Notes: generated from the letters alone by a model not told the origin. A DNA stretch of 49,641 nt from an uncultured Methanosarcinales archaeon (GCA_964472345.1 CAYYLB010000001.1:1-49641), one strand, 5' to 3'. Counted from the first letter of the stretch, positions 4,217 through 43,052 are shown. Translations and numbers: made by a program.

Positions 4217-4609
4217 CTATGATTCCCGTGAAAAATCGATTCTGGTGAGTCCAATAACCCTGTCAAATGAATGGTCACTGCTGACGATCGTGCCATAGCT
4301 GAGAGCAGCTTGTGCGTGCACGGCATCAGCGGGGCTGAGGCTGTAACGCTCGCCAAGAACCGCCGCTTCCTCAATGTCAGGGAAACGGAGATCAATGACA
4401 GCGCACAGCATCCGGAGCGCACGGAGAGCATCAAGAGCGCTTTTCTCGCCGTACCGGTAAAGGTAAAAATATACCTCCATGCAGGTAATCGCTGAAGTGA
4501 AGAGCTCGTCGCCGCGGTGCTTTTCAAGAAAGGCTCTCGCGGCACTCTTATAGCGGTCCTCCTTCTTCAGCACCGCGAGGAAGAGGTCAGCATCAACGTA
4601 CTGCTTCAT
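4217..4609 (-). CDS. vapC: PIN-domain ribonuclease toxin (VapC-like)
   Basis: Acidic PIN residues in the expected order: N-terminal DADLF, MEVYF, SPADAVH, SSDHSFD. 130 aa. Overlaps the upstream antitoxin gene by 17 nt. Confidence 0.85.
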   Translation of the reverse strand: MKQYVDADLFLAVLKKEDRYKSAARAFLEKHRGDELFTSAITCMEVYFYLYRYGEKSALDALRALRMLCAVIDLRFPDIEEAAVLGERYSLSPADAVHAQAALSYGTIVSSDHSFDRVIGLTRIDFSRES

Positions 4610-4850
4610 GGGAAAAGACCTGCTCTGCCTCGCGTTTCATCTCCACCGGCGTCTTTTTTGTACGGAGGTTGAAAGAGGAGAGGAATGCGAGGGGGTCGTC
4701 TATTCTCCTGACTGAGTGGAGCACGAGGGAATCCTCTTTGCTTTCCACAAGCACTTCCCCCGTAATTCCTAACTCACTCCGAACATTGAGGGGGATGTGG
4801 ACTCGGCCCTTCTTGTCCACGTGCAGGAGTTTATATTTCCCACCATCCAT
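4593..4850 (-). CDS. vapB: AbrB/SpoVT-fold antitoxin (VapB-like)
   Basis: KKGRVHIPLNVRSELGITGEVLVESKEDSLVLH is a typical swapped-hairpin AbrB motif. ATTTAAATAG box about 30 nt upstream of ATG 4850. Confidence 0.75.
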   Translation of the reverse strand: MDGGKYKLLHVDKKGRVHIPLNVRSELGITGEVLVESKEDSLVLHSVRRIDDPLAFLSSFNLRTKKTPVEMKREAEQVFSHEAVR

Positions 4851-4947
4851 AGTATGTTTAATGTTCCCACTACTATTTAAATATTTCTTTTCCCACAACT
4901 ACTTCCGCGGTGATGCTGATTCAAGTTGCGGAAGGCTCGCCCGGCCG

Positions 4948-5916
4948 TCAGTCGGGGATGAACGCCAATACGTGGAACGTCGAGAAGCCGAAGGAGTCGG
5001 CGTCGTTGATGACGTCCGTGAAGCGGGTCTTAAGCTCTTCGATCACCTCAAACAGGTGGTTCGTGTCACGCACAATCACCTCGATCTCAAAGTCCGCTCC
5101 GCCGATGGTGTTGTTGATCTGGTAGATGTTCCGGTGCATGCGGCAGAATTCGAACAGCTCCCCGTTCCGCGCGGTTGAGCGCAGCTGCAGGTCGACGCGG
5201 AAGGAGACGAAGCCAAGCTTCTCAAGGTCCAGGCCGATCTTGTAGCCGACGATGATCTTCCGCTGCTCGAGCTTCCTGATCCGGCTTCTGATAGTGTCGG
5301 AGCTGACGCCGAGTTTCTTCGCAATGTCAACGGCCGTCGCCCGGACGTTGGGCGCGTACGCTTCGATGATCCGCTGGTCGAGCGTATCGATGTCCTCCTT
5401 CTCGCCGGCGCCATAGACGCGCGTGAGCGGCTCGTCCTTCGTCTCGATGAAGAAGGCGCGGTTGAAGTTGTAGATGGGCGCATACACCGCGACATTGTAG
5501 GTTTTGATATGATCTTTATAGCGCAGCATGATGCTGTCCCAGATGGTGTGGAACTCCGCGATGCTCCGCACGCCGAGGAACAGCGCGAGATCCCACTTGC
5601 CGTGCATCGTCGTGATGGTCCAGACCTGCCGGAGGTTCGTGCGCACGTGCTCCACGACCTGCTGCAGAGCATCTTTGGTCATCTGCTGGAACTTGAAATA
5701 GACGCGGAAAGTGAAGTAGCCGAGTTTTGACATGTCAACGATAGCCGTGTAGCTGGTGACGATGCCGGCCTCTTCCAGGCGCCGCATGCGGTAGAGCACG
5801 AATGGTTTGGATCGGTTGAGTTTTTTGGCTAATGTGGAAAGAGCTGCTTTTGAATCGCGGTCGAGGAAGTAGAGGAGCTTTTTGTCGAACTGGTCGAGCT
5901 TCACGTTTTCTGGCAT
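4948..5916 (-). CDS. tandem (double-module) Lrp/AsnC-family transcription regulator
   Basis: Two successive HTH plus RAM-like modules. The HTH segments are LDQFDKKLLYFLDRDSKAALSTLAKKLNRSKPFVLYRMRRLEEAGIV and LDQRIIEAYAPNVRATAVDIAKKLGVSSDTIRSRIRKLEQRKII. AT-rich promoter region 5917-5960. Confidence 0.85.
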   Translation of the reverse strand: MPENVKLDQFDKKLLYFLDRDSKAALSTLAKKLNRSKPFVLYRMRRLEEAGIVTSYTAIVDMSKLGYFTFRVYFKFQQMTKDALQQVVEHVRTNLRQVWTITTMHGKWDLALFLGVRSIAEFHTIWDSIMLRYKDHIKTYNVAVYAPIYNFNRAFFIETKDEPLTRVYGAGEKEDIDTLDQRIIEAYAPNVRATAVDIAKKLGVSSDTIRSRIRKLEQRKIIVGYKIGLDLEKLGFVSFRVDLQLRSTARNGELFEFCRMHRNIYQINNTIGGADFEIEVIVRDTNHLFEVIEELKTRFTDVINDADSFGFSTFHVLAFIPD

Positions 5917-6102
5917 TATTCTTAATAAAAGTTTATTTATTTATAAATATTTCGTTTTTGTTAAAAAAGTTTTCCGTTAGTTTAATATAGTTATGTACGA
6001 CGTGTTGTCACAAGGAAGTTGTCACTGTTACGATCCAACCACTCATAAATATTAAGGGTTTACCATAGATAAGGCTGCAGCCGCCGCGGGCGGACAACAC
6101 TG

Positions 6103-7311
6103 ATGAGAAACAACCAAGGAACGAATATCCATACAACTGACGCGTACTGGGGGCGGCTGCGAGAGAGGTACCTCCCAGGCATCCAGCATTGTGATTTCCA
6201 AACTGCGTGCCTTGGCTTGCCGATGGCTGTTGTTTTATCCCCTGCCCAGCAGAGTCTTATGGCATATCGGGAGCCACCGTTCGTGACAGCGCAGCGATTT
6301 GCTACTGAGGTTGACGACTGCCGTCGCCTTGTCGCAGAACTTATTAGGGCAGCACCTTCATGTGTTTACTTTGACACCACAACGACTTCCTCCCTTGGAA
6401 CCATACTCAGGTCATTACGGCTGGAATCAACCGATGAAATAATAACGACAAACGATGAATATGGGAGCATACTCCATGCGCTCGAATGGCAAGCAAACGG
6501 GGCGCGTGTGGTTTCTTTACCGGCCGACAGGGATCTCACTTCCCGAATTGCAACTGCGATAACCTCGCAGACGAAGCTGCTCGTCGTGAGCCACATCACT
6601 CATGCGCAGGGAAACATTCTTCCGGTAGAAGAGATCGCGGGACTCGCCAAAGAACACAATGTCTATTTCGTTGTGGATGCCGCGCAATCTGTTGGGCAGA
6701 TTCCGGTCGACGTTTCCCGCATAGATCCGGATGCGCTGATCGGCTGTGGCCATAAGTGGCTTCGGGGCATGACCACGACGGGCATCATCTATGTTTCGGA
6801 TCGTCGACCGGCACTTCAAATGGCGTACTCTTCGCCATTTAGTCTCCCCCCTCGCCTGCGTAATCAACCTATCCGTCAAGATTCTAGCCTCAGCATCGAA
6901 TCTGAGTACATTGAATACAGTGGCTTGGGGAACAGCGAGCGGATTGCGCACCTTCGGCTCGCGCTGCTGGCACATCAAGAGGTCGGGTGGCCCGCCATCT
7001 ACGAGCGTCTTCAGCACCTCGGTGCCGTGGCGCGTCAGGAACTTGCCAAGAACCATTTCGTTGAATTGCTCACTCCCGAGAGAAGCGCCCCGGCCATTAT
7101 TCCGCTACGGGTAAAGGGGATGAACCAAGAAGAGGTTTTTGAACGATTGTCGGGTGCCGATATCATAACAACGCTCAAAAAAGCTGAAGAGCTCATCCGC
7201 GTCGCGGTTTCGCAGTTTACCGCGTTGGAGGAAATTGCGCAGCTAAACCGAGCGCTGTATGACATCGGCAATGGCGGTGGGCTTGGTACCTCGGGTATCA
7301 AAAACCAATGA
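6103..7311 (+). CDS. PLP-dependent class V aminotransferase / cysteine-desulfurase-like enzyme
   Basis: Fold-type I pattern: VVSHITHAQGNILPVEEI, FVVDAAQSVGQIPVDV, and a candidate PLP lysine in GCGHKWLRG. 402 aa. Confidence 0.75.
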   Translation: MRNNQGTNIHTTDAYWGRLRERYLPGIQHCDFQTACLGLPMAVVLSPAQQSLMAYREPPFVTAQRFATEVDDCRRLVAELIRAAPSCVYFDTTTTSSLGTILRSLRLESTDEIITTNDEYGSILHALEWQANGARVVSLPADRDLTSRIATAITSQTKLLVVSHITHAQGNILPVEEIAGLAKEHNVYFVVDAAQSVGQIPVDVSRIDPDALIGCGHKWLRGMTTTGIIYVSDRRPALQMAYSSPFSLPPRLRNQPIRQDSSLSIESEYIEYSGLGNSERIAHLRLALLAHQEVGWPAIYERLQHLGAVARQELAKNHFVELLTPERSAPAIIPLRVKGMNQEEVFERLSGADIITTLKKAEELIRVAVSQFTALEEIAQLNRALYDIGNGGGLGTSGIKNQ

Positions 7312-7327
7312 CATTGGAGAGGGATAC

Positions 7328-8086
7328 ATGGGCAAAGCGCAAGACGAGCGGTCAATAAGATTGTTCGAGGAGGCAAGGCCCCTCGTTCGCACGCACGAAG
7401 AAAGTTTCAAGTACCTCCTCGAGCACCGCTTGCGCGTGCCAGAGCTTCCCCACCGCTCCCCCCCGCATATGGGGGTATGGTACTATTTTGAAGGATGGTT
7501 ACGTCAGCAGTACAATGTCGAGGTACGGGATCCAGATTTCCCGGCAGCCCCCTTTCAGGAACCCCTGGTACTCAAAGTTGATGCCGATGGCATTTACGGC
7601 TCTTTCGAAAGCTTCCGCCTTCCACCCGGAGATTTTAGCAGACAAGCTAATGAAACGATACTGGGCATGATAGAAGATGAGGGCATCCGTGCCGCAAACC
7701 AGTTTGTCCAGCAAACGCTTAGACCTCAGATTGAAGATAACCTGCGCAGGTCCTTTGCAGCGCCCGATAGTGCGTATGTGGACGTTGGGGATGTTGTGGA
7801 GCACATGATTAACATGAGGTGTCTAGGAGTACATCCTGAGGATCCCCAACTCAACAATCTTGAGGTTGGACTCGTCTTTCCGGCACCAACTGCACCGCAG
7901 GCGCTTGAATATGGGTGTATGATTTTCCGAAGCACGTTCCCGCCGGGCCGCTCCGCGCACGTTGTAGATATCATGCAGGGTTCCTATGGCGATTCCCCAC
8001 TCTATCAGACGTGGAAGCGGTTCGTACAGCAACAGTTGGGCAATAGTTGTAGTGTGAATAAAACAGAACGGAGGCGATCGGTATGA
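7328..8086 (+). CDS. hypothetical protein, 252 aa
   Basis: ORF in the same-strand block between the aminotransferase and the MetE-like genes. ATG 7328 lies just after the upstream stop. Its stop overlaps the next start (ATGA at 8083). No motif recognised. Confidence 0.5.
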   Translation: MGKAQDERSIRLFEEARPLVRTHEESFKYLLEHRLRVPELPHRSPPHMGVWYYFEGWLRQQYNVEVRDPDFPAAPFQEPLVLKVDADGIYGSFESFRLPPGDFSRQANETILGMIEDEGIRAANQFVQQTLRPQIEDNLRRSFAAPDSAYVDVGDVVEHMINMRCLGVHPEDPQLNNLEVGLVFPAPTAPQALEYGCMIFRSTFPPGRSAHVVDIMQGSYGDSPLYQTWKRFVQQQLGNSCSVNKTERRRSV

Positions 8087-8466
8087 GGTATATCTCTCGG
8101 AGAGAGGAAAACGCCGATGGAGGCGTTTGCTACAGCGTGGAAGCCGATAAAGGTGGACATCTCGCGTCGGAGTGCTGGGTGGAAACCGGAGAGAATGGCG
8201 CAATAAGAACCATGGGGTGGGCACATCCAGCGCACTATACTGGGAAGGGAGATGTTCTTGTAAGCGTCGAATACGCTGTAGGAGAAGGAGATAAGCTAAC
8301 CCGAAATGGTGGGAATGCCAGCGGAGCCATTGATGCAGTCGTCGAGAGTGGGTTCAAAGCCCTTGCGGAAAAATTCCCCGAAGTTGCGGGTGAGGTTGGA
8401 CGCTGCGTTGCCGAAGCAGGCCGCATGAGCAAGGATATTAGGCGCGCTTGGCGTCCGCACCCCTAA
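8083..8466 (+). CDS. hypothetical protein, 127 aa
   Basis: Start overlaps the stop of the previous ORF (translational coupling). No motif recognised. Confidence 0.45.
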   Translation: MRYISRREENADGGVCYSVEADKGGHLASECWVETGENGAIRTMGWAHPAHYTGKGDVLVSVEYAVGEGDKLTRNGGNASGAIDAVVESGFKALAEKFPEVAGEVGRCVAEAGRMSKDIRRAWRPHP

Positions 8467-8527
8467 GATTTTAGTTATAACTATAAAATAGTAAACATTA
8501 TAAAGAAGTCCGGATTTACGGCAAAAA

Positions 8528-9499
8528 ATGAATATCGGAGCGTACCTTACAGGACCATTCGGACAATCTCAAGCCATTTATCGGGCGAGAAATGATGCCA
8601 AGAGGGGAAGAGGAGCACCGGAAGCAGTAACCGCACGGGTTGAAGAGGATACAACCGCGGTCATTGCTCTCCAGCGTGATGCTGGTCTTGATTTTATTAT
8701 CGACCCTATGTTTTGGTTTTATCATCTGTTTCAGCCGTTTGCCGAACAGCTCGGTGGAGTCAGCGAGGGCCCTCAGGAGAACTGGTTCAATAACAACATG
8801 TTTTACCGCCGACCCCAAATCCAAGGGCCATTACAACCGCTGGGGGGCTTCACCGAGAAATATGTTCACGTTGCCAAGCTTCCAACCGATGGGACCGCGA
8901 TGGTTATTCTCCCGTCCCCTTATACATTACTTGTGCTCTCCGATGTTACCGGTTATCCTGATAGGAAGGCCGCGCTGACGAATCTGGCAGAGGTCATATA
9001 TGCTGAAGCACAGCATCTCGCCTCCAGGGGGGTTGGAAGAATACAGTATGACGAGCCCGCAATCGTCGTGAAACAATCCTTGGGCTCACTAAAAGAAGAG
9101 GACCTGGCTCTTCTGCAAAGAGGAATTGATGTTTGCGGCCATATTGGTAATGCAACGACGAGCCTTCACACTTATTTCGGAGACGCTGGCCCGATCATCC
9201 CCCATCTTCTTCGCCTTCCCGTAGATTGCATCGGCATTGACGGAACGGAAACGCGTCTTGTGGATGTTTTGAAGCATGACTATTCTGGAAAAGAGCTTGC
9301 TCTCGGGCTTCTCGACGCGCGGAGTACGAGGGTGGAAAAAGCTCAAGAGATTGTTGCCCAATTACGAGCCGTCGCGCAGGAGACCCACCCTCGAAGGCTG
9401 TGGTTAACACCAAACACCGGAACGGAGTACAGGGGATTTACGCATGGTACCAAAAAGTTAAAGTTGCTTGCGGAAGTGAGGCGGATACTTCATGGATAA
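8528..9499 (+). CDS. MetE/UROD-superfamily protein lacking the Zn ligands (MetE N-domain-like)
   Basis: TIM-barrel MetE-like layout (VIALQRDAGLDFIIDP, RIQYDEPAIVV). The positions matching the Zn-ligand motifs read LHTYFG and LTPNTGTEY, with no Cys. Overlaps the next gene by 8 nt. Confidence 0.6.
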   Translation: MNIGAYLTGPFGQSQAIYRARNDAKRGRGAPEAVTARVEEDTTAVIALQRDAGLDFIIDPMFWFYHLFQPFAEQLGGVSEGPQENWFNNNMFYRRPQIQGPLQPLGGFTEKYVHVAKLPTDGTAMVILPSPYTLLVLSDVTGYPDRKAALTNLAEVIYAEAQHLASRGVGRIQYDEPAIVVKQSLGSLKEEDLALLQRGIDVCGHIGNATTSLHTYFGDAGPIIPHLLRLPVDCIGIDGTETRLVDVLKHDYSGKELALGLLDARSTRVEKAQEIVAQLRAVAQETHPRRLWLTPNTGTEYRGFTHGTKKLKLLAEVRRILHG

Positions 9500-10685
9500 G
9501 CTGTTCCCTACCTATGAGATTGGAAGTTTGCCGAAGCTCACCGCACGGGAAAAAGCAAGAAAAGGAATCCCCATAGCAGATGATGATATCTCGGAAGTTA
9601 CTGACCTTGGCAGGAGATTTTCTGTAGACACCGAGCACGTCGTCGCCTTCCTCAAAAAGCTCCAACAGGAAAACAAGCTTGACGCAGCTAACAGAAAGGC
9701 GCTGGTTGACTTTAACGCATTGCTCTATATTAAGCTGCAAGAAGCCGCGGGCCTCGACGTCGTGTACGATGGAGAGGCTCGGCGCGCCGAGATGTACCAG
9801 CATGTTGCACTGCATGTGAATGGTTTTGAGATGGCACCTGAGATGATACGCTCGAGAGGCCCTGACAGCTGGCGCATGGCCGTTTGCGTTGCTCCGCCCG
9901 GCTTGAAAGAAGGCAGTCTCGACGCGCTTGTCAGGAACGAGTTTCGCTTTGTGCAGCAGCATGCAGCGAGGCCAACAAAAATCCCTGTGGATGACCCTTA
10001 CATGATTGCCGTGATGAGCGATAACCGGCACTACCTCGAGATGCTGGGGCCACGCTACCAGGATGATCCGCACCGGCTTCGCTACGAGGCGAAACGCGCA
10101 TGTACGCTCGCGCTTGCTCGCAACGTCATCCGCCCGCAGGTAGAAGCAGTTGTCAATGAAGGCGCACGATGGATCCAGCTGGACATCCCGGGGGCTACGG
10201 TGGACATCGAGCATATTCCTATCATGGTCGAGGGGATCAACGCAGTCGTCGATGGCATCGAAGGGGTGAAGTTTAGTCTGCACATCTGTTATCCACGACG
10301 AGTATCATTAACAGAAAAAAGCGGGTACGAATTGCTTTTCCCGTCCATTTTAGACCTCCATCCGAACGTGAATCATATCTCACTTGAACTCGCCAATGCG
10401 GACCAGTACGAAACTGACCTTGCGGTGTTTGCGAGGCATCGGGAGCAGCGGCAGTTTGAGTTGGGCGTTGGCGTCATCGACATAACCTTAGAACGGCAAC
10501 AGAGGGAGGTGATGGAAACCCCAGAAATCGTAAGGGACAGGATTCTCACTGCCGCTCGAGTATTGGGCGATCCTAAGCTTGTTTACGTTGCACCCGACTG
10601 TGGCATGCGCCAGTTAGCAATTGAACGATGCGTGCGGCTTTATGAAACGATGGTAGAGGGTGCAACATTAGCGCGAAAAGGATGA
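9492..10685 (+). CDS. cobalamin-independent methionine-synthase-like methyltransferase (MetE catalytic-domain type)
   Basis: Candidate Zn-ligand set His/Cys in SLHICYP, Glu in ISLELAN, Cys in YVAPDCGMRQL. YDGEARR motif. 397 aa. Confidence 0.75.
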   Translation: MDKLFPTYEIGSLPKLTAREKARKGIPIADDDISEVTDLGRRFSVDTEHVVAFLKKLQQENKLDAANRKALVDFNALLYIKLQEAAGLDVVYDGEARRAEMYQHVALHVNGFEMAPEMIRSRGPDSWRMAVCVAPPGLKEGSLDALVRNEFRFVQQHAARPTKIPVDDPYMIAVMSDNRHYLEMLGPRYQDDPHRLRYEAKRACTLALARNVIRPQVEAVVNEGARWIQLDIPGATVDIEHIPIMVEGINAVVDGIEGVKFSLHICYPRRVSLTEKSGYELLFPSILDLHPNVNHISLELANADQYETDLAVFARHREQRQFELGVGVIDITLERQQREVMETPEIVRDRILTAARVLGDPKLVYVAPDCGMRQLAIERCVRLYETMVEGATLARKG

Positions 10686-10782
10686 TGACTGCTCACGAGG
10701 AAATTCCCTTTTGCCAGGTAATACATCAGAAAGTGTTGATAAGAACGCCAGAAAGACCTCAAGAAGCGCAGCCCTACGCCCC

Positions 10783-10809
10783 CTCTTCCTCACCGAACGT
10801 CTCCGTGTC
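10783..10809. repeat. 27-bp direct repeat, copy 1 (duplicate of the rps3ae 3' end)
   Basis: CTCTTCCTCACCGAACGTCTCCGTGTC, identical 27/27 to 11968-11994. Confidence 0.95.
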
Positions 10810-10878
10810 ATTTTATATCTGTAATAATATTTATAACCGCCATAACATTTATAAGCAGGAACCGCATACGCGCTCTTG

Positions 10879-11082
10879 ATGACAACCACCCTATCGGTTA
10901 CCGAGGAAATAAGGGAGAAAATAAAAGAGTTTGGCTCAAAGGGGGAGACCTATTCAGATATCCTCGCGCGCCTTATCGAAGCTGCGCAGGAGCAGCAGGT
11001 AAGGGCACTCCTCATGGATACAAGGGGGACTTCTCAGGTAAGGGATGCGCTTGCACGGGCACGAAAAAGATGGCAGAAGTAG
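10879..11082 (+). CDS. putative antitoxin (small RHH/VapB-like archaeal family)
   Basis: TLSVTEEIREKIKEFGSKGETYSDILARLIE resembles the small archaeal antitoxin pattern. CATTTATAAGC box about 25 nt upstream. Overlaps the toxin gene by 13 nt. The track start at 10876 is TTG, so ATG 10879 is preferred. Confidence 0.6.
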   Translation: MTTTLSVTEEIREKIKEFGSKGETYSDILARLIEAAQEQQVRALLMDTRGTSQVRDALARARKRWQK

Positions 11083-11408
11083 TGATTACTGATGCCCTTG
11101 AGAATGAGATCAACCGGCACTTTCAAGGGCAGAGCGTTGAGATTTTTGAGCTGCTCCACACGCTTGGCGGTAATCCAAAGAAAGGCGATGTTGTTGGCGC
11201 TGTCGGCGGTGTCGTCATCAAAGAGCTGAAGTACGGGGCATACCGATTCTATTTTATCACTGACGCCTATAAGGTGAAGTTTCTCAAGAGCGAAGAACTG
11301 ACTGGCCTGATCATCAAATTTGTACGCATGTCCCGCAAGAACGACCAGCAGAAAGTGATCGAAAAAATCAAGAATGTCCTGAGGCTGCTGGGAAAAGAAG
11401 GATTCTGA
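11070..11408 (+). CDS. RelE/ParE-superfamily toxin-like protein
   Basis: LLHTLGGNPKKGDVVGAVGGVVIKELKYGAYRFYFITDAYKV matches the RelE/ParE core pattern (nP..G..l......k.r.g.YR..Y). Genetically coupled to the small upstream gene. Confidence 0.6.
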   Translation: MAEVVITDALENEINRHFQGQSVEIFELLHTLGGNPKKGDVVGAVGGVVIKELKYGAYRFYFITDAYKVKFLKSEELTGLIIKFVRMSRKNDQQKVIEKIKNVLRLLGKEGF

Positions 11409-11449
11409 CGCAGCGCAGGTTTAAGTTTCTTCTTCTCCAAACACCACTT

Positions 11450-11668
11450 TTACTCAAACTCGCTCCGTGGCTTTTCTGTCTGCTTGATGATATACTGGAG
11501 AACAAAGATTGTTACTTCGTTGTGATGCGGAACCCAGGTTGTTAACACTCGGCCGTCGCTTGTTGTTTTCTTGAAGGTTGTGTGCTTCCTCGAACGCACT
11601 TCCTGAAACCCATTACGCTGAAGGATTTGAACAACCTCACGCTGGGGTAATGGTTTGAGTTTTCCCAT
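11450..11668 (-). CDS. hicA: HicA-family mRNA interferase toxin
   Basis: REVVQILQRNGFQEVRSRKHTTFKK...VPHHNEV...LQYIIKQ is the YcfA/HicA dsRBD-like pattern. 72 aa. Confidence 0.85.
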   Translation of the reverse strand: MGKLKPLPQREVVQILQRNGFQEVRSRKHTTFKKTTSDGRVLTTWVPHHNEVTIFVLQYIIKQTEKPRSEFE

Positions 11669-11909
11669 GCAGAATCTTCTCTGGAACTGTTATAGGTATA
11701 TTGGCGAGAGACGTTGACATGAGCGCACGGAAATCTGGTTTCGGCGTATCCGGATCCTTCAAGTAATCATCAATGAGATCCCGCATGTTCTCTTTAACTT
11801 CCACTTCCGTCTTGCCTTGCGTCGCGATGTCTAAAAGAGGGCAACTTGCGACAAACCATTCTGTTTCTTTAGTGATAACGACCGGTAGCGGGATTTCCAT
11901 TTCTGCCAT
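11637..11909 (-). CDS. hicB: HicB/UPF0150-family antitoxin
   Basis: PLPVVITKETEWFVASCPLLDIATQGKTEVEVKENMRDLIDDYLKD is the typical HicB N-domain. TTTTAAATAC box about 30 nt upstream of ATG 11909. The longer track ORF to 12092 was rejected. Confidence 0.8.
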   Translation of the reverse strand: MAEMEIPLPVVITKETEWFVASCPLLDIATQGKTEVEVKENMRDLIDDYLKDPDTPKPDFRALMSTSLANIPITVPEKILHGKTQTITPA

Positions 11910-11961
11910 ACGAGGGAAGAAGCAAACCGAGTATTTAAAATTTGCGTGATTGAGGCAGGTA

Positions 11962-12780
11962 CTATGTCTCTTCCTCACCGAACGTCTCCGTGTCCTCGAT
12001 CGCCGGCTCTGGCTCAGACGGCGGCGCTGCGGGTTCGGCCGCTCCGCCTGCTTCCTGCTCCCCCGCGGACTGCTGCTCCCCTTCCATCTCACCCTGCATC
12101 TCTTCTGTCACCGTCCTCTTCCTGGCTTTCTTTTTTGGCGATTCATCAGCAGCCCCGGGCTTCGCCTCCTCTGTGGGCTCCTCGCCCGCCTTCTCGGCCT
12201 TGCCTTCGCGCGCGAACTCGACAATCTTGATCTCAACGGTCTTGAGCGGGTAAATGGCAGAAAGCCGCTTCTTGAGCTCGCTTTGCATGCTCCGGCTGGT
12301 GAGCTGCTGCACCAGTTCCAGAAACGTGCCCTTGCCGACCATGCGTGCGATATCGCCGCGGACCTTCTGGCGGAGCGCCGTTGCGACGGAATGCACACTC
12401 TTATGGAATGTGACCAGCAGCGGCTTGATCCGTATCCGCTGCCCTTCTTTGGTGAGCACGACAAAACTGTCGTCGATGCGTGTCGTGTTGCGCCGCGCGA
12501 GCCGCTTGAGGGCAGCGGGAACAATATAATAGCCAATGACGTCGGTGCGCAGCGATGCGCCTTCGTTCGCGGTAATCTTGAACTTCACGTAGGTGTTCTG
12601 GTCGCGCATGTCGCCGGTGATGTCTTTCAGGTTCGCATGCACGACGCGGCCGACCGCAACCGCCGGATCCGTCACATAGGTCTGCCCAAGCTCGGCATTG
12701 TCCAGTTCCTTGGGCGCGAGAATCGGATACCAGTTCTTCTTCTTGACTGCCGGTGCAACGGTTGCCTTCGCCTTCGCCAT
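11962..12780 (-). CDS. rps3ae: 30S ribosomal protein eS1 (S3Ae) with a long acidic C-terminal extension
   Basis: KKKNWYPILAPKEL...VGRVVHANLKDITGD...YVKFKI is the S3Ae signature region. TTTTTAAA box about 31 nt upstream of ATG 12780. The track start at 12792 is TTG. Confidence 0.9.
   Translation of the reverse strand: MAKAKATVAPAVKKKNWYPILAPKELDNAELGQTYVTDPAVAVGRVVHANLKDITGDMRDQNTYVKFKITANEGASLRTDVIGYYIVPAALKRLARRNTTRIDDSFVVLTKEGQRIRIKPLLVTFHKSVHSVATALRQKVRGDIARMVGKGTFLELVQQLTSRSMQSELKKRLSAIYPLKTVEIKIVEFAREGKAEKAGEEPTEEAKPGAADESPKKKARKRTVTEEMQGEMEGEQQSAGEQEAGGAAEPAAPPSEPEPAIEDTETFGEEET
11968..11994. repeat. 27-bp direct repeat, copy 2 (last nine sense-strand codons before T-stop of rps3ae)
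   Basis: Identical to 10783-10809. On the minus strand it encodes DTETFGEEE. Confidence 0.95.
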
Positions 12781-12896
12781 TGCGCTGCGCAAGAGGGAAG
12801 GGGTTTAAAAATGTATCGCGGCGGATTTGGTAACCCGATGCAGGTGGTGACAGAAGGAAAGGTTTATAAAGCGGTGCTTTTTTTCCCGTCCAGAAA

Positions 12897-13202
12897 ATGG
12901 TACAACGAAAACCAGAAGCGTATGCAGCCCTGTTGCAGGGAATTGGTGTTCCCGTTGGTGAGTGTGCGACGCCGGAGCAGATGGATACAGCTGATGCGTT
13001 CCTCGCAGAATTAAGAAAAACTGACCAGCGCGGCTGCAGACTCATTGATGTTCGATATGGACTCCACGGCATGGTGCCGGTTACCATTGAAGGTCTTGCA
13101 GGGACTGATGCACCCGGTCCACGAAGTGATCTCCGCCATGCTGAATCCTATGCGTTGCGGCGTTTACAGAAGTTATGTGCGGAAGGCCATTACCGCAATT
13201 AA
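12897..13202 (+). CDS. hypothetical protein, 101 aa
   Basis: TTTATAAA at 12863-12870 lies 27 nt upstream of ATG 12897 (leaderless spacing). Occupies the only gap between rps3ae and gyrB. No motif recognised. Confidence 0.45.
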   Translation: MVQRKPEAYAALLQGIGVPVGECATPEQMDTADAFLAELRKTDQRGCRLIDVRYGLHGMVPVTIEGLAGTDAPGPRSDLRHAESYALRRLQKLCAEGHYRN

Positions 13203-13231
13203 AGAGGGGTTAGTGCCATTTCTATAATGTA

Positions 13232-15397
<2,166 letters not shown>

Positions 15398-34547: not shown

Positions 34548-34645
34548 ATCTCCTTCACCACGTCGCCCGCGATGAAGCTGTAGCCGCGCTTCTTCTTCAG
34601 CAGCAGCTCGCCCATCATCTTGCTCACGAACGATGCCGCTTCCGC
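34548..34645 (-). pseudogene. detached, diverged copy of the nnrD 3' end (gene remnant or att-like repeat)
   Basis: 87/98 nt identical to 34991-35088 by hand alignment, with a 42-nt perfect core (34562-34603 = 35005-35046). Encodes AEAASFVSKMMGELLLKKKRGYSFIAGDVVKE versus AEAASFINKRIGGLLLKKKRGYSFIAGDMVEE. Confidence 0.75.
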
Positions 34646-34682
34646 ACGCAAAAACAACTCTCCCGGCCGCGCCAGGAAAAAA

Positions 34683-34985
34683 CTACAAAACCAGCCTCTT
34701 CGCCGCTTCTGCGCTCTTCTTCTGCTGCTCAGCAGTTGCACCAAGCTCCGTGCCATGTTTCTCTGCTAGCCGGTAAAGGTCATGAACGGAGAGATTCAGC
34801 AGCTCCGCTGCCTTTCCGAGAGAGATTCTTCCTTCGCTCACGAGATCCAGGGCGTATTCCTCCGCACCAAGGTGCATGAGCTGGCGCAACGCCGCGCTCT
34901 TATCAACATAGTACTGCCGGCTTCTCAACTGCGCAAGCTCAATCATCTTTTTTGGTATCCTCAATGGGTAAGGTAGCGATTCCAT
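34683..34985 (-). CDS. UPF0175-family (antitoxin-like HTH) protein, orphan
   Basis: SEGRISLGKAAELLNLSVHDLYRLAEKHG is the family hallmark. ATG is 1 nt after the nnrD stop. No cognate PIN/DUF3368 partner is present. Confidence 0.75.
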   Translation of the reverse strand: MESLPYPLRIPKKMIELAQLRSRQYYVDKSAALRQLMHLGAEEYALDLVSEGRISLGKAAELLNLSVHDLYRLAEKHGTELGATAEQQKKSAEAAKRLVL

Positions 34986-34986
34986 A

Positions 34987-35916
34987 TTACATCTCCTCCA
35001 CCATGTCGCCCGCGATGAAGCTGTAGCCGCGCTTCTTCTTCAGCAGGAGGCCGCCGATCCGCTTGTTGATGAACGATGCCGCTTCCGCGCTCCGCATCAG
35101 GTCGTTCGTGATGGCGCTGGCTGGGACTGTTTGTGCAGCGGTTTGTGCGGTGCGGGCCTGCTGGCTGTGGCGGGCTCCCCTTCCGGCGGATGTGAAGGAC
35201 GCCTTTTCCCTCGCCACCGCCTGCGCAAGAAAGCCGGCGCACAGTCCAGCAAGAACATCCCCCATCCCGCCGCGCGCCATGCCGGGGTTGCCTCCAGCGA
35301 CTTTTTTGATGGCTGCTCTTGAGACGAGGTAATCCGCCGGCCCCTTCAGCAGCAGGACGTTGCTTCCCGCGCAGCGCTGGAGCGCTTTTGCCTTCCGCGA
35401 AACGCTGCCGACCCTGCTGAGCCGCGCTCGGCCTGAGTTGCGCAGCAGCAGCTGCAATTCAACGGCGTGCGGCGTGATGATCGCATTTTCAATCTCCTGC
35501 AGCGAAAGCACCTTGATCGCGTCAGCGTCGATGACTTTTGGCATGCTGCGTGCTGTTTTCATCAGCCTCCGGAAGAACGCTTTGGTTTCCTTCCGCAGCC
35601 CGGCGCCATTCCCCGCCGCAAGCACGTCGCACTTCCTGAGCAGGGGGGCGAGCAGCTTCAGGTGCCCTGGCGCAAGGAATTTCCCCGGCAGCTTCTTCGT
35701 GATGAGATCGGGGCTGCAGCAGTTGATCGCCCATGCCACCTTTTCCGGCGCAGCAATCGTCACCAGGTCGCAGCCGGCGCGCAGCGCAGCCAGCCCCACA
35801 AGCACGAGCGTGCCGACGTAGTCTTCCGAGCCGCCGATCACGAGGACATGGCCGTGCTGGCCTTTGTGCGATGCCTTCGTGCGGCGCATGAGGCGCTTGA
35901 TGGCGGGGAGGTTCAT
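34987..35916 (-). CDS. nnrD: ADP-dependent NAD(P)H-hydrate dehydratase (YjeF C-terminal / carbohydrate-kinase family)
   Basis: HKGQHGHVLVIGGSEDYVGTLVLVGLAALRAG and GGMGDVLAG motifs. About 30 aa of low-complexity insertion after LAQ. Confidence 0.85.
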   Translation of the reverse strand: MNLPAIKRLMRRTKASHKGQHGHVLVIGGSEDYVGTLVLVGLAALRAGCDLVTIAAPEKVAWAINCCSPDLITKKLPGKFLAPGHLKLLAPLLRKCDVLAAGNGAGLRKETKAFFRRLMKTARSMPKVIDADAIKVLSLQEIENAIITPHAVELQLLLRNSGRARLSRVGSVSRKAKALQRCAGSNVLLLKGPADYLVSRAAIKKVAGGNPGMARGGMGDVLAGLCAGFLAQAVAREKASFTSAGRGARHSQQARTAQTAAQTVPASAITNDLMRSAEAASFINKRIGGLLLKKKRGYSFIAGDMVEEM

Positions 35917-42194: not shown

Positions 42195-43052
42195 TTATCC
42201 CCAATCAATTTTTTCTTTCTTCTTCTCAGTCAAATGCAAATAATTTTCAGGTGTAACAACAGACTTACCTGTCTTTTGTTCAAGCTCTTTTCGTGTATTT
42301 TTAGCAATATCCCCACCTTCTTTAGCGGTTTGTCTGAATTGTGGAAACTCCTTTGCATCTTTCGCAACAGTAATATCGGTTGTCGCTTTCTCACCAACCA
42401 TAGTCAAAATTAACTCCCAATCAGTCATGTGATCCCTGAGATTCTGGTTCTGCTTTCGTAACCCTTTGAATTGCTTGTATTCTCCAATAGTCTTCCCAAA
42501 TGTGGCTTTGGAAATCTCATTAGTCAGGATGGCAAAATCTTTCTCTTCCTGAACGCCTCTGGATTTCCATTCATCGGTTAAATCCTGCCTGATGGCAATG
42601 CCCCTTAACCTTTTGTCTATCCAGCCTTTTGGATAGCCTTTGAGTTCGTAGTATTCTTTCACTCTATCTTGAGCAAGTTCTGGATTTTCTATTTCTTCAA
42701 TACGTTCCTTGCCCACTTGTGCTAGCCACATCTTAAACGGCTCTGCTTTCTTGGACGGGATTGATTGGATAAGCCTAAAAGCATTTTTGGTATTAACACA
42801 GTCAGTATATCTTAATTTACCATCTTCTGCTGGAATTTTCAACTGTACCCAAATTGGGGACAGTTCAAGAGCAATAAACTCTCTGTCTTTAACTTTACCC
42901 CAATACTGCCTGGGGGTAGGGCTGTCTGTTAAAATTTCAACGATATCTACAACAGAATAAAACCATTCATTATTATACAAGAGTCTTCTAATCTTTCGAT
43001 CTTGAAATACTATCAGCCTTTTTTGAGCCTCTTTTTCTACCATCTTTAACAT
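42195..43052 (-). CDS. Bro-N domain protein, DinD-like (phage/plasmid-associated family)
   Basis: FQDRKIRRLLYNNEWFYSVVDIVEILTDS is the Bro-N core. The gene is markedly AT-richer than its neighbours. Confidence 0.75.
   Translation of the reverse strand: MLKMVEKEAQKRLIVFQDRKIRRLLYNNEWFYSVVDIVEILTDSPTPRQYWGKVKDREFIALELSPIWVQLKIPAEDGKLRYTDCVNTKNAFRLIQSIPSKKAEPFKMWLAQVGKERIEEIENPELAQDRVKEYYELKGYPKGWIDKRLRGIAIRQDLTDEWKSRGVQEEKDFAILTNEISKATFGKTIGEYKQFKGLRKQNQNLRDHMTDWELILTMVGEKATTDITVAKDAKEFPQFRQTAKEGGDIAKNTRKELEQKTGKSVVTPENYLHLTEKKKEKIDWG

Follow-up and report, generated by a model that had tools for sequence, protein, structure and literature searches.

Insertion with long target duplication has been described for bacterial restriction-modification gene complexes, which insert without a recombinase and leave duplications across start or stop codons (Nobusato et al. 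2000, Gene 259:99; Furuta et al. 2010, PMC2853133; review PMC3874152). Furuta et al. (2010, PMC2853133) defined such cases by target-derived direct repeats of more than 30 bp, an insert of less than 20 kb without other mobile-element genes, and a related genome with a single-copy empty site; no archaeal case passed their selection. In archaea, integrated elements are known that lie at the 3' ends of protein genes, substitute the stop codon and are found stacked (2019, PMC6563490). Bacterial chromosomal type II toxin-antitoxin (TA) loci are described as moving horizontally, e.g. relBE in hokD of the E. coli Qin prophage (Ramisetty and Santhosh 2016, cited in PMC6379469; Van Melderen and Saavedra De Bast 2009, PMC2654758). 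We analyzed a window of 49,641 nucleotides (nt) from an uncultured archaeon deposited as Methanosarcinales (GCA_964472345.1 CAYYLB010000001.1:1-49641; all positions are counted from its first letter), in which two TA operons lie behind the ribosomal protein gene eS1 (rps3ae). Our verdict is that this locus is an ancient, stacked and partly recombined pair of recombinase-free TA cassettes, i.e. an archaeal TA variant of the phenomenon described for bacterial restriction-modification complexes.

The locus is marked by a perfect 27-bp repeat, reported in an earlier note made from the sequence alone. The 27-mer CTCTTCCTCACCGAACGTCTCCGTGTC is present in two direct copies, at 10783-10809 and 11968-11994, identical at 27/27 positions. 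No further copy with up to three mismatches was found in the window, and the number of such repeats expected by chance was 0 in 100 shuffles. On the minus strand, copy 2 translates as DTETFGEEE and makes up the last nine conserved codons of eS1 (272 amino acids (aa), 11962-12780, minus strand; Pfam Ribosomal_S3Ae, E=4e-40; identical to P0001), and is followed by ACA TAG (T, stop). Copy 1, in frame on the same strand, continues into GGG GCG TAG (GA, stop), i.e. an intact alternative ending, so that both reading frames given in the note hold. All eS1 homologues at 50-58% identity have at their C-terminus the motif E(T/S)FGEE(E) followed by one to six residues, and one of them ends FGEEGA. In this clade the eS1 protein has a long C-terminal extension rich in lysine and glutamate (window 11962-12200; P0002-P0011), and the motif with which it ends lies outside the Pfam S3Ae domain.

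Relatives of the window carry the alternative ending on the functional gene. The 90%-identity cluster of the window eS1 has a second member, P0029, which ends ...EEEGA; in gyrB and eS1 the contigs bearing it (L005-L007) and the window have 93-96% identity, and L007 matches copy 1 plus GGGGCGTAGG at 37/37 positions. Because relatives about 95% identical in eS1 end in this way, ...EEEGA-stop is, by sequence comparison, the ancestral eS1 ending and copy 1 a stranded piece of it. This stranded 3' end, hereafter remnant 1 (10765-10809, minus strand), is made up of the 27-mer (10783-10809), GGGGCGTAG, which is the GA-stop (10774-10782), and about 9 nt of original downstream sequence (10765-10773); its identity to the functional eS1 end of L007 is likewise 37/37.

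Four genes, all of them toxin or antitoxin genes, constitute the gene content of the insert. The cassette next to remnant 1, which we call TA1, measures about 0.6 kb from its promoter/operator to the toxin stop codon. It begins with three TTTATA boxes 18 nt apart (10810-10878, plus strand; 18-nt repeat family D2), followed by an antitoxin gene of 67 aa of the DUF7557/VapB-like type (10879-11082, plus strand; Pfam DUF7557 E=7.8e-6, VAPB_antitox E=9e-5) and by a toxin gene of 112 aa (11070-11408, plus strand), which the antitoxin gene overlaps by 13 nt. TTATAA-rich operator regions homologous to that of TA1 precede the antitoxin in a distant relative (L022) and in metagenomic TA1 loci. Since sequence searches with the 112-aa toxin were uninformative (no Pfam, NCBIfam or PDB match), a fold search was used. 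The AlphaFold model, obtained from an alignment of 35 sequences, has a pLDDT of 92.6, and the best 15 PDB matches found by Foldseek are all RelE, HigB or ParE proteins (probability 1.0 for the best; TM 0.55-0.71), among them 9g12_B (E=1.8e-3, TM 0.70) and the archaeal RelE 1wmi_A. The toxin is thus predicted by its modelled structure to have the RelE/ParE superfamily fold; at the sequence level it matches no family. Its 164 homologues, of 112-118 aa, are distributed among Woese-, Pace- and Nanoarchaeota.

The second cassette, HicAB, is about 0.55 kb long and convergent with TA1; like TA1 it is self-contained, reaching from its promoter/operator to the stop of the toxin gene. It comprises a HicA toxin of 72 aa (11450-11668, minus strand; Pfam HicA_toxin, 36.4 bits for a cut-off of 27) and a HicB-type antitoxin of 90 aa overlapping hicA (11637-11909, minus strand). 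Pfam, NCBIfam and PDB sequence searches with the 90-aa protein were uninformative, and Pfam lends it weak support (PHD_like in 23 of 27 homologues, best E=0.0012; UPF0150 in 3 of 27); source names were used instead, and many of its 235 homologues are labelled HicB by NCBI or JGI. With a HicA-domain toxin and an adjacent HicB antitoxin the pair is a HicAB system. The earlier gene calls (antitoxin plus RelE/ParE-like, HicB plus HicA) are therefore borne out by Pfam, the fold search and homologue names. The HicB promoter region, with its TTTTAAATA box, and the new eS1 ending ACA TAG (11962-11967) occupy 11910-11967 on the minus strand; ACA TAG stands where the ancestral gene end had GGG GCG TAG. 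The TATA-like box of HicB lies about 26 nt from copy 2, and the statement that the TATA box of each operon abuts a repeat copy is to be corrected accordingly.

The note also held that only two TA operons lie between the repeat copies. The interval in fact contains a third eS1 end, the middle remnant (11409-11441, minus strand), which consists of FGEEET-stop (TTT GGA GAA GAA GAA ACT TAA at 11421-11441) plus 12 nt (11409-11420) that touch the TA1 toxin stop. Relatives have an equivalent at this place. Contigs L009-L016, from the same samples as L005-L007, carry the same four genes as the window insert and share with it the junction GTGTC/ATTTTATATC, their copy 1 being slightly diverged (..GV-stop); in L010, HicB leads directly into an eS1 still ending in GA-stop. 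Between their two operons the relatives have a further partial eS1 end with downstream bases (GCGCAGCCCTACGCCCCCTCTTCC), of the GA-stop type, and the downstream part of remnant 1, AGCGCAGCC, recurs past their TA1 toxin stop. This extra eS1 end between the operons implies two successive, nested insertions. The duplication around TA1, reconstructed from window copy 1 (10765-10809) and the middle remnant of the relatives, measures about 45 nt, and that around HicAB only 21-25 nt. The 27-mer is thus the still-identical part of the older duplication of about 45 nt around TA1, and no target duplication of a single event. Insertion at the 3' end of rps3ae with the frame kept thus stands, with the duplicated gene end as evidence; the description as one block with one repeat gives way to two cassettes and a third eS1 end at 11421-11441. 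Relatives with about 5-8% difference in DNA from the window have an identical TA1 junction; this insertion thus predates the split between them and the window, and the comparison indicates that the arrangement is old. The GA-stop relatives likewise carry both cassettes.

The HicAB segment of the window departs from this shared history. Nucleotide identity between the window and its relatives is 92-96% in eS1 and gyrB and 89-92% in TA1, whereas the middle remnant reaches only 71%, HicA 75% and HicB 68.5%; the promoter of HicB cannot be aligned with its counterpart in the relatives (48% identity, with gaps). At the protein level the window HicB is 66% identical to the allele of the relatives, compared to 75% for the HicB in the assembly of an unrelated archaeon. 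The middle remnant and the present eS1 end (TTC GGT GAG GAA GAG ACA TAG) encode the same peptide with six differences, all six at third codon positions (about 0.0014 if positions are random). Differences restricted to third positions are expected if the remnant had belonged to a functional eS1 of a diverged lineage. The HicAB segment is a divergent, foreign allele, and we infer that it was imported, together with the middle remnant and ACA TAG, by homologous recombination from such a lineage. A middle remnant derived from the GA-stop end by C-to-T decay was also considered and was rejected, given its translation as FGEEET-stop with synonymous differences only.

As the window is a metagenomic contig and the contigs of relatives end near the site, the A-R-B-R-C structure might be an artefact, i.e. 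a de Bruijn graph mis-join at the common 27-mer. Contigs of independent assemblies speak on this point: L008 (GCA_016203935.1) equals window 8511-10924 at 99.96%, and the Logan contigs L017 and L018 equal window 11268-12496 and 11569-12625, respectively, at 100%. Matches at this level support both junctions independently. The homologous arrangement is moreover found with diverged sequence in relatives from at least five samples, and contig ends just past eS1 in these relatives are accounted for by a polymorphic insertion sequence (IS)-like element, described below. Mis-assembly of the locus is very unlikely; the artefact is already close to refuted and we give it practically no weight. The contig L008 (JACQLU010000073.1), 99.96% identical to the archaeal window, is binned at NCBI as 'Parcubacteria group bacterium', a label that is probably a binning error.

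We then examined the distribution of TA1 at other places. A scan of metagenome contigs with the TA1 toxin alignment gave 80 loci, with an intact antitoxin-toxin pair in 75 of them. None of the roughly 80 loci, a close relative excepted, has eS1, IleRS or gyrB nearby. Flanking direct repeats are present in 7 of 61 testable TA1 loci (L074, 87 nt; L046, 28 nt exact; L091, 66 nt; L068, 26 nt exact; L087; L056; and the relative L027), and each scores above every mismatched-pair control (exact-match maximum 13 nt). In a within-locus control, such a repeat is found at 6 of 51 TA1 loci with full flanks and in none of 231 shifted windows (Fisher p=2.7e-5). The two copies keep a fixed arrangement, the first always upstream of the TTATAA-rich operator and the second at most 7 nt from the toxin stop in most loci, or 18-53 nt past it in L087 and L091. 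The repeats, of 25-87 nt, are all different sequences (L074, L046, L087, L091, L068, L056 and the window), and wherever the target can be identified the repeat is a gene boundary: the 3' end of AlaRS with its stop codon in L091, the stop/start overlap of two genes of an operon in L046, the 5' start of a downstream open reading frame (ORF), ERCC4-type nuclease-like as its translation reads by eye, in L068, and the 3' ends of other genes in L074 and L056. A HicBA locus (L112) has a flanking repeat of 64 nt corresponding to the 3' end of a NOG1-type GTPase gene; such a repeat is absent in the other three of the four HicB contexts examined. The suggestion that the process recurs is thus supported by 6 of 51 other TA1 loci, one HicBA locus and a second case in the window, all with the same anatomy.

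Distant relatives of the window differ in what lies behind eS1. L022 has a TA1 pair right behind the gene, its proteins 66-68% identical to those of the window and no flanking repeat detected; in L025 a DUF4258/DUF2283 pair starts 5 nt past the eS1 stop; L019 has no TA genes behind eS1 and is too diverged to count as an empty site. TA1 as a mere syntenic neighbour of eS1, an idea raised by L022, was weakened by the 80 loci that lack eS1, IleRS and gyrB nearby. In another archaeon (L111, 3001-4040), an IS200/IS605 Y1 transposase gene lies between hicB and a truncated hicA, and this pair sits within a ribosomal protein gene cluster (S19e, L31e, S27e, L44e).

The second case (34548-35088, minus strand) consists of a duplicated 3' end of the NAD(P)HX dehydratase gene, 98 nt long, around a UPF0175-like gene. 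The functional copy is at 34991-35088 and the stranded copy, with a longer old tail, at 34548-34645; they are 89% identical, and nine of their 11 mismatches fall within one 24-nt stretch. The UPF0175-like gene (100 aa, 34683-34985) starts 1 nt past the new dehydratase stop (ATG TAA T ATG) and has no evident promoter or toxin partner; it is probably an orphan, antitoxin-like gene co-transcribed with the dehydratase gene. The duplicated gene end proposed for this case is therefore present, around a single UPF0175-like gene and not around a TA pair. A systematic search of the window for stranded gene ends returned the eS1 and dehydratase cases only.

No mobility gene was found that could account for these structures. 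Pfam and NCBIfam searches found no integrase or transposase in 10810-11967 nor among the 38 window ORFs scanned, and no terminal inverted repeats were found at the insert, in agreement with the earlier reading of the block. Rfam gave no match in 10000-13300, no tRNA gene is present in the window, and the junctions have no attC-like hairpins (fold z-scores of -0.9 to +0.45 versus shuffles). The locus does not resemble an IS, a miniature inverted-repeat transposable element or another transposon: terminal inverted repeats are lacking, and the duplications are long and variable, unlike the 10-bp duplication of the IS present in relatives. The only mobile-element-like gene noticed in the window encodes a 285-aa Bro-N protein (42195-43052); the Bro-N domain is typical of viruses and mobile elements.

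We consider it reasonably probable that recombinase-free TA cassettes were stacked behind eS1 by host-mediated insertion, and that the HicAB allele was exchanged later. On this view TA1 entered first, between the convergent genes behind eS1, and duplicated about 45 nt across the eS1 stop (the last nine codons, the GA-stop and about 10 nt downstream), which left one copy on the gene and the other beyond the TA1 promoter (10765-10809). HicAB came next, into the gene-proximal copy, with a duplication of about 21-25 nt giving rise to the middle remnant. Later, in the lineage of the window, a segment that begins with the middle remnant, contains HicAB and reaches the extreme end of eS1 would have been swapped by homologous recombination with a donor lineage whose eS1 ends ...EEET-stop, with crossovers close to where the TA1 toxin gene ends and where the 27-mer ends. 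Such an exchange would have turned GA-stop into T-stop and cut the detectable repeat to 27 bp, so that the left boundary of the 27-mer would be due to the exchange and its right boundary to the old TA1 junction. The nested insertions are supported by the three copies of the eS1 end, which lie at the expected positions.

As for the enzymology, we favour insertion by host recombination or repair without an element-encoded enzyme. One route would be short-homology recombination, Campbell-type or one-sided and homology-facilitated, of a cassette carrying a captured neighbouring gene end; another would be capture at a widely staggered break followed by fill-in. In compact genomes only insertions whose duplication spares the flanking gene would persist, which would produce the bias towards gene ends, and toxin-antitoxin addiction would counter loss by recombination between the repeats. 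The sequences themselves show the anatomy, the order of events, the recurrence at other targets, the lack of recombinase genes and the divergence of the HicAB allele, whereas the enzymology and the addiction effect are inferred. A more general and tentative form of this proposal, which we hold to be possible though rather doubtful, is that small type II TA operons of DPANN and other archaea are recombinase-free mobile cassettes with a captured gene-end fragment serving as homing arm: host recombination would integrate them at the orthologous gene end, duplicating it, and addiction would block deletion. If true, homing-arm cassettes would explain the different cassettes found behind eS1, AlaRS and the NOG1-type GTPase gene, and would give a mechanism for insertion with long target duplication.

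Several points weigh against host-mediated insertion followed by allele exchange. The window covers 49.6 kb only, and a recombinase elsewhere in the genome may act on the cassettes. No empty site was found for any of the insertions. At eS1 it would be a gene ending in GA-stop beside the metE-like gene; the GA-stop relatives hold both cassettes, and a contig scan of genomes with eS1 returned distant Woesearchaeota only (34-38% identity). Insertion is consequently deduced from the anatomy and not from a comparison of occupied and empty sites. When the JGI metagenome contigs were scanned for exact matches to the 27-mer, none was obtained, so that no empty site or dispersed repeat came to light in this way. 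The signature of a foreign allele was found once only and was noticed post hoc, and the differences within the remaining repeat pairs fall on all codon positions without synonymous bias. Finally, the divergence of the L022 TA1 (66-68%) is housekeeping-like (57% for eS1, 77% for gyrB), so TA1 could be an old resident and the duplication a later, local event.

The main rival takes the repeats as att sites of integrative elements, with a tyrosine or serine recombinase or a casposase, inserted in tandem at the eS1 3' end; the recombinase genes would have been lost or would act in trans, and the addictive TA genes would have been left behind. Archaeal elements do target the 3'-distal parts of protein genes, swap the stop codon and form arrays by re-use of a site, which the nested eS1-end copies resemble, and crenarchaeal att sites of 29-69 bp are reported (PMC6563490). 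The same TA1 of about 600 bp, however, has differing repeats (25-87 nt) at each target, 5' gene starts included, which a fixed attP would not give; repeats that vary in sequence and length in this way speak against a transposase or a casposase-type ruler as well as a fixed att site. The absence of a recombinase from the insert and from the scanned window ORFs tells in the same direction, as does the absence of TA1 from IMG/VR viral contigs. In loci with detectable repeats the cassette bounds are tight around the operon and leave no space for decayed element genes. We judge integration at att sites to be unlikely.

An explanation without mobility at this locus, in which the eS1/IleRS gap has long been home to TA1 and HicAB and replication slippage, tandem duplication and gene conversion made the stranded ends and kept the 27-mer identical, draws on the L022 TA1 beside eS1 with its housekeeping-like divergence. 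It is also in keeping with the other indels of the region (a metE segment lost in relatives, a variable gyrB-eS1 spacer, an IS insertion) and with the clustering of repeat mismatches, which is compatible with partial gene conversion. It leaves unexplained the duplicated flanks at unrelated genes elsewhere, for which shifted windows gave none, and the different TA family at the site in L025. Simple tandem duplication, moreover, does not account for a gene-end copy past the TA1 promoter, and the HicAB allele is as far from the allele of the relatives as from that of unrelated archaea. Local rearrangement of old residents thus seems to us quite improbable.

In its anatomy the locus comes close to the restriction-modification insertions. 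In both, an addiction-type gene pair without mobility gene is flanked by target-derived direct repeats of variable length (tens to hundreds of bp), the target remains intact, as the repeats often extend over the start or stop of translation, and allelic substitution at the site is seen too. As to the definition of Furuta et al., the repeats measure about 45 nt for TA1 (27 nt of them still perfect against the gene), 98 nt in the second case and 25-87 nt at the other TA1 loci, in line with the length of more than 30 bp (the HicAB duplication, of 21-25 nt, is shorter), and the inserts are smaller than 20 kb and devoid of other mobile-element genes; the single-copy empty site is what the locus lacks, whereas published cases are defined by pairs of occupied and empty sites. 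Further differences are that the cargo is of type II TA (a RelE-fold pair and HicAB), without the DNA-breakage property proposed as common to restriction-modification systems, and that the hosts are DPANN-type archaea. Archaeal integrated elements share with the locus the 3' protein-gene target, a new stop derived from the element, stacking at a re-used site and direct repeats. Those elements, with a size of 5-100 kb, carry the gene of an integrase or casposase, and their att site or target duplication is fixed; the units here have 0.5-0.6 kb and TA genes only, and one cassette has different flanking repeats at each target. The remark in the note that its author knew of no description of this way of landing on gene 3' ends in archaea is to be qualified: 3' integration with stop substitution is known there (PMC6563490), and long duplications without recombinase are known in bacteria (PMC2853133).

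Bacterial chromosomal TA loci resemble the locus, as far as the available sections of the literature go, in being small operons in variable contexts without mobility genes of their own, with a neighbouring ORF whose 3' end can be altered; those sections (PMC6379469, PMC2654758) describe no duplicated flanking gene ends, no stacking at an essential gene and no archaeal hosts. Integron gene cassettes are promoter-to-stop-sized, often carry TA genes and are stacked at one site. The locus differs from them in that no IntI integrase was found, attC-like hairpins are lacking and the repeats copy the end of the host gene, with no cassette-borne sites.

The movement of chromosomal TA loci without mobility genes is poorly understood, and the mechanism of insertion with long target duplication has been open since 2000. 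The locus, together with six to seven repeat-flanked TA1 loci and one HicBA locus, extends the phenomenon to type II TA cassettes and to compact archaeal genomes. TA1, as a well-defined unit of 0.6 kb, lends itself to a comparison of its ends and target duplications over many natural insertions. The locus also shows that an essential gene such as eS1 can gain new C-terminal codons as a by-product.

Other variations were observed around the locus. Relatives are polymorphic for the IS-like insertion, which lies between the HicB promoter and eS1 (at window position ~11945-11960); L010 represents the IS-empty site, in comparison with L012, L009, L013 and L005-L007. The element has a 10-bp target duplication (TGTAAGAAAG), a 16-bp inverted-repeat core (TTTAATCTTCGGGATA) and at least two ORFs, one starting MIQCIFCKSSENIVKAGFRYNGS (zinc-ribbon-like) and one weakly HTH_28-like. 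On the other side of the insert, contigs L009-L016 lack a 127-aa ORF and both metE-like genes of window 8057-10704. They keep the first codons of the 127-aa ORF (ATGAGGTATATCTCTCGGA) and 45 nt of window 8057-8101 at 97.8%; as the breakpoints are at short GAG(A)GGAAA repeats, a deletion of 2.6 kb seems to be the cause. Their left neighbour is a 539-aa PEP-utilizers gene where the window has a 275-aa ORF. A VapBC pair of the window (PIN plus MraZ/AbrB-like antitoxin) adjoins the gene of an AsnC-type regulator with a double helix-turn-helix (4217-4898, 4948-5916), and in the distant relative L023 this combination of regulator and VapBC is found near eS1 (5357-7022). The gyrB-eS1 spacer is variable: the window has at 12870-13231 a 101-aa ORF (12897-13202) without Pfam match, and L005 (4005-4906) an unrelated 228-aa ORF on the opposite strand.

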